A DNA stretch of 7,590 nt, taken from IMG/VR virus record IMGVR_UViG_2609459830_000025; one strand, 5' to 3'. The first letter of the stretch is position 1. Each line of letters starts with the position of its first letter. Both the position numbers and the translations under genes were made by a program. Source of the DNA: a virus. Its lineage: Duplodnaviria > Heunggongvirae > Uroviricota > Caudoviricetes. The notes beneath the pieces are model-generated. The model was not told the DNA's origin. It searched no databases and saw nothing but the letters and a program-made list of their open reading frames with translations. Positions 7,090 to 7,590 of this stretch are shown in pieces.

Positions 7090-7113
7090 TCAGGCGGCCT
7101 TGATAGTCATATC
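7090..7113 (-). pseudogene. 3' remnant of ea10, truncated by the IS insertion
   Basis: Seven sense codons (DMTIKAA) plus a TGA stop at 7090-7092 lie at the position where lambda ea10 ends. The reading frame upstream of them is replaced by the IS terminus at 7114. Confidence 0.45.
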
Positions 7114-7590
7114 TGAACCGCCCCGGGTTTCCTGGAGAGTATTTTATCTGTGAACTCAGGCTGCCAGATCATCGTTTCCGATGGAAGCATAATAAGCTTT
7201 TTCTGCTTCTGCCGGAGGAGTATGGCCCAGCCTTTCCAGCAATCGTCGATTGTTATACCAGTCCTCCCACGTGAGTGTGGCCAGTTCCACTTCTGCACGG
7301 TTTTTCCAGCTCTTACGGTGTATTACCTCCGCTTTGTAAAGACCATTGATGCTCTCCGCCATCGCGTTGTCATACGAGTCGCCAGTACTTCCTGTTGATG
7401 CCAGTAATCCGGCTTCCTTAAGCCGCTGTGTGTAGGCCAGCGATACATACTGAGAACCTTTATCACTGTGATGGACCGTGCCGGACGGTCGACGGGCCCA
7501 TAACGCCTGCTCCAGTGCATCCAGCACGAATGTCGTCTCCATGGACGATGAGACCCGCCACCCCACAATGTATCCGGCAAACACATCAAT
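7114..7590 (-). mobile_element. IS3-family insertion sequence (IS629/IS1203-like), right end; continues beyond the window
   Basis: Terminal sequence TGAACCGCCCCGGGTTTCCTGGAGAG starting at 7114 resembles IS3-family terminal inverted repeats (TG... ends). It is 42 bp from the stop of a DDE transposase OrfB on the minus strand. Confidence 0.8.
7156..7590 (-). CDS. IS3-family transposase OrfB, C-terminal part (partial, 5' end outside window)
   Basis: Frame open from the window edge to TGA at 7156-7158. Translation ...[63 protein letters not shown]... is typical of an rve/DDE integrase core C-terminus. Confidence 0.85.

Follow-up and report, generated by a model that had tools for sequence, protein, structure and literature searches.

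An IS629-group insertion sequence at the 3′ end of ea10 in a lambda-type prophage of Escherichia coli

Organization of the window

The window, which is the whole 7,590-nt stretch of DNA analyzed here, was annotated using an open reading frame (ORF) listing and family searches, and was found to comprise the E. coli gene ybhC and the left arm of a lambda-type prophage at att-lambda (Table 1). The same backbone was present next to ybhC at 99.5% identity in many O157:H7, O55:H7, and O145:H28 genomes. A sister prophage free of the insertion sequence (IS), from E. coli O157:H7 LSU61 (L001), differed from positions 1–7113 of the window by 34 mismatches, 27 of which were located in ybhC. Apart from the IS, all left-arm ORFs in the window were intact, and their proteins were all identical to those of L001, with the S6N substitution in Int as the sole exception. 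As the original prediction had stated, the transposase gene shares its strand with the leftward early genes cIII, kil, gam, bet, exo, xis, and int, and is thus co-directional with them. Following the direction of pL transcription from the IS, one first meets an intact gene at cIII, with 96 bp between its ATG and the IS end.

TABLE 1 Features annotated in the 7,590-nt window
Feature	Position	Strand	Remarks
ybhC	1–1284	minus	E. coli gene adjoining the prophage
int	1419–2489	minus	
xis	2467–2685	minus	
exo	4903–5583	minus	
bet	5580–6365	minus	
gam	6371–6667	minus	
kil	between gam and cIII	minus	Intact
cIII	6853–7017	minus	Pfam Lambda_CIII (1.5e-30); protein identical to that of L001
cIII thermoregulator RNA	6972–7030	minus	Rfam RF01804 Lambda_thermo, 84.2 bits, E 6.9e-20, model positions 1–59 of 59, complete
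Native terminator-like hairpin with T-tract	7047–7066	minus	Between ea10 and cIII; 8 pairs followed by TTTTCG (terminator scan)
ea10 (DUF2528) remnant	7090–7113	minus	Last 7 codons and stop codon
Candidate copy of a 3-bp target-site duplication	7111–7113		ATC; adjoins the IS end
Right-hand 477 bp of the IS	7114–7590	minus	Cut off by the contig end; 36% of the element
Terminal inverted repeat (IRR)	7114–7138	minus	TGAACCGCCCCGGGTTTCCTGGAGA
OrfB C-terminus	7156–7590	minus	144 codons and stop codon; DDE/rve; N-terminus missing at the contig end

The Int S6N substitution (window position 2473, Int residue 6) is a rare allele that was found in 36 index blocks, and several of the contigs carrying it had quite different lambdoid or P22-like early regions beside the same int gene. 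In lambda Int, this N-terminal region is the arm-type DNA-binding domain. A further ORF of 200 aa (window positions 3135–3737, plus strand) runs opposite to all neighboring phage genes, sits between xis and a TraR/DksA-like gene, and is annotated as hypothetical in RefSeq. Its predicted product appears hydrophobic, resembling a membrane protein, and the ORF may be a moron-type accessory gene.

In reverse-complement orientation, the window matches the final 7,590 bases of contig JNMP01000054.1 (GCA_000700405.1) exactly. Since position 7590 is the contig end, the other IS end and the target duplication must lie on some other contig. They had already been expected outside the window, and it is moreover the contig itself that stops here. 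This end is an assembly break inside a multi-copy repeat of a draft assembly, and the right edge of the window therefore gives no indication of whether the element or the prophage is complete.

The breakpoint in ea10

Base-by-base comparison showed that the similarity between the window and L001 is gone entirely from position 7114 onward. The alignment with phage lambda (98.5% identity over 815 bp) ends at the same base, which places the break between lambda positions 33559 and 33560, within ea10 (lambda 33536–33904). The intact ea10 gene of L001 (369 bp, 122 aa) is located exactly where the window sequence changes, and its product carries the Pfam domain DUF2528 (PF10800, 5.3e-47) and is identical to lambda Ea10 at 121 of 122 residues. 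The 24-nt remnant in the window is identical to L001 11090–11113 and lambda 33536–33559, and reads GAT ATG ACT ATC AAG GCC GCC TGA on the minus strand, which translates to D M T I K A A followed by the stop codon at 7090–7092. The original prediction had placed an IS terminus at 7114 in the 3′ end of ea10, with seven codons of the gene left before this stop codon, and both the loss of homology after 7113 and the reading frame of the remnant confirm this description.

The remnant was assigned to ea10 based on its identity with lambda and its position immediately upstream of cIII. A complete DUF2528 domain is not encoded in the window, which holds only seven codons of the gene, and the other 115 are not on the contig. 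Judging from the sequence, ea10 in the source strain is thus an interrupted gene and not a functional member of the DUF2528 family. According to the comparison with L001, the uninterrupted target consists of CATATC followed directly by ATCTGAATC, with the break between the two. After ATC(ATC), the rest of ea10 is expected to read TGAATCAAATATTCC, which is also given as ATC ATCTGAATCAAATATTCC.

BLAST searches with window positions 6400–7590 and 7040–7190 did not match the junction in a single piece in any of 5,426 complete E. coli genomes, and an exact 40-mer spanning the junction returned zero hits in the genome, viral, and metagenome contig collections. Likewise, an insertion at this site, 24 nt from the end of ea10, was present in no complete genome among the 5,426. 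The absence of the junction from these genomes and from the three collections indicates that the insertion is private to a small lineage.

The Ea10 products that a simple insertion would leave were searched for with duplications of 0, 2, 3, 4, and 5 bp in the L001 allele, and of 3 and 4 bp in four other alleles. With a 3-bp duplication, a TGA at the IS tip would terminate Ea10 after 116 residues, and with a 4-bp duplication the product would have 125 aa. The predicted 116-aa and 125-aa forms of the L001 allele were absent from the protein collection, and forms of 115 and 116 aa were found only as "partial" proteins at contig ends, where all lengths from 114 to 119 were represented, as in a generic zone of assembly breaks. 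The missing protein record is weak evidence, since genes of this kind are often labeled as pseudogenes during annotation, and the source strain may carry another allele.

Draft contigs stopped at each of the ea10 codons 114–119 (equivalent to window positions 7099–7116 and just beyond) in several alleles, which suggests that a phage module present in multiple copies in STEC genomes has its boundary at the 3′ end of ea10. One contig that ends at the exact breakpoint base (L020, GCA_012712065.1) was considered and rejected, because it belongs to another assembly, differs in its upstream organization, and lacks any IS sequence. In this contig (L020 2454–3395, AATCIE010000085.1), ea10 lies approximately 940 bp from gene P with no O, cII, cro, cI, or N called between them, and the immunity region seems to be missing.

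Identity of the insertion sequence

The IS begins with TGAACCGCCCCGGG at position 7114, which is also how the IS629-type terminal repeat begins. All 477 bases from this position to the contig end matched the end of a 1,310-bp copy in VR50 (L019 1501–2810) with two mismatches (99.6% identity). Thousands of E. coli loci matched the same 477 bp, the best of them at 99.6%, and a match of this length and identity cannot be ascribed to chance. The first 13 bases of the IRR, TGAACCGCCCCGG, were common to all eight comparator copies, while base 14 was G in five and T in three of them. The window carries one IS end, which matches both the reference and all comparators over these 13 bases, and the other end is off the contig. 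In the full VR50 copy, the two ends agree at 23 of the first 25 positions. The left end of the IS, beyond the contig break, is expected to read …CCCGGGGCGGTTCA (also given as …GGATTCCCGGGGCGGTTCA).

The OrfB fragment matched the Pfam families rve (6.4e-16), rve_3 (2.3e-11), and rve_2 (4.6e-05), so that a DDE transposase with an rve core was recognizable from its 144 C-terminal residues, with the first D expected to fall beyond the window. The fragment contains the motif HSDKGSQY and a second motif of 11 residues, where the second D and the E of the DDE triad presumably lie. In the VR50 copy, two overlapping ORFs encode an OrfA of 108 aa and an OrfB of 296 aa, HTH_21 and rve domains are present in the latter, and a programmed frameshift is annotated. 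These dimensions match those published for IS629. The earlier assignment to the IS3 family was borne out by the IRR, the rve domains, and the 99.6% identity to a 1,310-bp copy. Within this family, the element is by sequence a member of the IS629/IS1203/IS3411 group, which it resembles in the start of the terminal repeat, the rve domains of OrfB, and the match of all 477 bp to a full copy.

By contrast, the identity to seven other complete copies in STEC prophages was 93.1–96.6%. The matches at 99.6% are annotated merely as "IS3 family transposase", whereas the copies annotated as IS629 or IS1203 are those at 93.1–96.6%, so that the window isoform is 3.4–6.9% removed from annotated copies in O157, O55, and other STEC prophages. 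The names of these related copies were given as IS629 by the depositors in one phage record, and as IS1203 family by RefSeq in others. In ISfinder practice, an isoform shares at least 95% nucleotide identity with the named reference. Compared at the nucleotide level, the IS in the window appears to be a different isoform from the seven STEC-prophage copies. It further differs from IS629 in that only 36% of the element is present and in that it carries a private V261E substitution in OrfB (window position 7265), where all eight comparator copies have V. According to Rump et al., the subtypes of IS629 differ by 4–5%, and IS1203 and IS3411 were treated as isoforms (PMC3271280). In O157:H7 genomes, 62% of the IS629 copies were located inside prophages, with no sequence-specific hot spot (PMC3271280).

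Comparable insertions near ea10

Comparators were picked solely by their near-side junction, and comprised seven co-directional insertions from different prophages, located upstream of cIII at distances of up to approximately 700 bp. Each had a length of 1,310 bp, with target duplications of GTAA, GTA, TTT, CCT, GTGC, CTG, and CTG. A mirror-image query returned one insertion of the opposite orientation in ea10, in strain F8798, with both halves of the gene present. Altogether, the eight independent insertions in or next to ea10 were all complete, and the junctions read in seven of them had duplications of 3–4 bp.

The ea10 gene itself was struck independently at least three other times, in RM13322 (duplication GTAA), O157 644-PT8 (TTT), and O157:H7 F8798 (both ea10 halves annotated). 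These complete 1,310-bp insertions affect the same gene and belong to the same element type as that in the window, but they lie at other positions in ea10 and apparently represent other isoforms of the IS, and that of F8798 has the opposite orientation.

A probable simple insertion into ea10

Since all eight comparators are complete and the seven junctions that were read have 3–4 bp duplications, we consider it quite likely that the window records the simple insertion of a 1,310-bp IS629-group element into ea10 of a prophage at att-lambda, with near-neutral consequences. A copy of the IS629 group would have transposed into the site that corresponds to the step from base 33559 to base 33560 in lambda, using a DDE transposase that would be made by frameshifting between orfA and orfB. 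The far side would most likely consist of a 3–4 bp target duplication and the first 115 codons of ea10, and the assembly broke in the multi-copy repeat, so that no more than the right end of the IS is included in the window. We infer the completeness of the element, the target duplication, and the presence of N, nutL, and pL beyond the IS.

The insertion is probably close to neutral for the prophage, because the loss of ea10 is tolerable, both cIII and the RNA element that controls it are intact, and the genes from cIII to int would be transcribed by an N-modified polymerase. In lambda, ea10 was scored as nonessential by genome-wide CRISPRi (PMC10695390). The original prediction also regarded the insertion as a step in prophage domestication, for which we found no other sign, since the left-arm ORFs are intact and their proteins match those of L001 except for Int S6N.

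Alternative explanations

Alternatively, the IS could mark a rearrangement junction, with the rest of ea10, ral, N, pL, and the immunity region deleted or inverted after the insertion or by recombination between IS copies, which would cut cIII–int off from pL and leave the prophage as a stranded remnant. The contig ends inside the IS, nothing of the far side is visible, and the predicted truncated Ea10 products were not found, although the latter carries little weight given how often such genes are annotated as pseudogenes. There are also precedents for such events in related DNA. The 99.6% copy in VR50 has no target duplication and is flanked by a ren pseudogene on one side and a truncated ybhJ on the other, and thus represents an IS-bounded deletion in the att-lambda region, while the approximately 940-bp distance between ea10 and P in L020 indicates that the early region of such prophages can rearrange. 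However, all eight insertions in or near ea10 were complete, seven with 3–4 bp duplications and the eighth with both gene halves, and no signs of decay were seen in the left arm within the window. We therefore regard a rearrangement as unlikely. In the VR50 locus itself (L019 1225–3477), the ren pseudogene is frameshifted, and the IS-bounded deletion looks to have removed most of the att-lambda prophage together with ybhC.

Another possibility, which appeared somewhat less likely still, is that the IS substantially alters the pL operon, by polarity on cIII–int or by outward transcription, so that lysogeny control, recombination, and excision are changed. The position and orientation of the element are those on which the original prediction based this suggestion, and synteny with the sister prophage and lambda upheld its location between the pL/N side and cIII–int. 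In operons without antitermination, IS elements classically exert polarity, and one terminator-like hairpin is present within the IS on the strand of the transposase (L019 2043–2028). In addition, the ends of IS3-family elements carry part of a junction promoter.

Outward promoter activity from the IS end, as proposed originally, found no support in a consensus scan. Neither the junction nor the complete element contained a sigma-70-like promoter by this simple type of scan, which would miss weak and non-sigma-70 promoters. Moreover, a native terminator-like hairpin with an MFE of −13.8 kcal/mol in its 46-nt context lies between the IS and cIII (positions 7066–7047) and is identical in the IS-free L001. 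We assume that it is probably one of the tL2 sites of lambda. Transcripts starting in the IS would lack nutL and should stop at this hairpin before reaching cIII. Furthermore, kil is intact and its product is toxic if expressed, which suggests that the cell would hardly tolerate constitutive transcription out of the IS.

The suggested polarity on cIII–int was likewise unsupported, and the functional reading as a whole is in part contradicted. In lambda, tL1 lies directly after N. A second terminator, tL2a, is located between ral and ea10 in lambda and constitutes the 3′ end of the sRNA PreS/LPR1 (bioRxiv 10.1101/2024.10.31.621285; PMC12197685). With tL1 and tL2a both upstream of ea10, the genes from cIII to int would be reached only by N-antiterminated polymerase and are dependent on N in any case, and the L001 sister prophage indeed encodes an N-type antiterminator upstream (Pfam N_peptide, 5.5e-32). 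PreS/LPR1 was also considered as a target of the insertion and was rejected, because its position between ral and ea10 is beyond the IS and outside the window, so that the insertion does not disrupt it.

Polymerase modified by N overrides IS-borne terminators and IS polarity, as is known from classical work, albeit incompletely when Nus function is weakened. Strong polarity is therefore not expected. The cIII thermoregulator is intact, and at least eight similar co-directional insertions persist in early regions that otherwise look intact. The main effect of a simple, near-neutral insertion after induction would be a pL transcript lengthened by 1.3 kb, while expression would change little.

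Finally, an assembly artefact in which an IS read was wrongly fused to the end of a phage contig is hardly credible, for although this is a draft short-read assembly, contigs break at every ea10 codon from 114 to 119 in many assemblies, and the exact 40-base junction occurs in no other collection searched, the break falls at the canonical first base of the IRR, as in real transposition, instead of at some k-mer that happens to be shared, the junction is followed by 477 bp of IS, the same contig was found in two samples, and the same gene neighborhood was found at three further places.

Known parallels and significance

The polarity of IS insertions in gal is reportedly relieved by read-through from pL in the presence of N, and lambda r32 is said to be an IS2 insertion. 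These cases resemble the locus described here in that an IS lies in an operon transcribed by a polymerase modified by N at nut, with termination largely overridden, but the IS and its position are different, and N, nutL, and pL are deduced here from the sister prophage. The att-lambda prophage of strain Sakai, which we take to be Sp3, is described as heavily defective, in contrast to the intact left arm in the window. Another prophage of this strain, the Stx2 phage Sp5, carries an IS insertion and still excises and transfers (PMC2669165). It likewise represents an IS in a lambdoid prophage with no essential function disrupted, but it is a different prophage, with the IS site upstream of the lysis region. 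More generally, IS insertions in STEC prophages are common and not necessarily disabling (PMC2669165).

The locus contains a known element in its commonest location, a prophage, and the specific site is new to the collections searched, as is expected for an active IS. A private IS629-group insertion in a dispensable prophage gene carries little biological weight, and is of the kind used as a strain-typing marker for STEC. The ea10::IS junction in combination with the rare Int S6N allele could serve as such a lineage marker.

Orientation of insertions between N and cIII

In the interval from N to cIII, eight distinct co-directional sites, including that of the window, stood against one of the opposite orientation. 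Apart from the window, the seven co-directional sites came from 36 complete genomes (30 of these records were inspected) and the single opposite site from one genome, all within the interval equivalent to window positions 7090–7800 in IS-free coordinates, and these counts are uncorrected for clonality. We put forward only as a doubtful proposal that the short interval between N/ral and cIII, occupied by ea10 and its neighbor, is a recurrent, orientation-biased landing zone for IS629-group elements. Such a bias could arise if insertions were selected for keeping the N-antiterminated pL operon functional. The right inverted repeat holds a terminator-like hairpin that faces inward, and pL transcripts would run into it only where the IS is inserted the other way round. 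The transposase might, on the other hand, simply favor certain targets or one orientation. If the bias held up in a proper count, it would provide a small testable example of selection on the persistence of IS elements in prophages.

Four of the comparator insertions (L022 and L024–L026) are located just beyond the start of ea10, several of them in the interval that holds PreS/LPR1 and tL2a in lambda, and might disrupt this sRNA.
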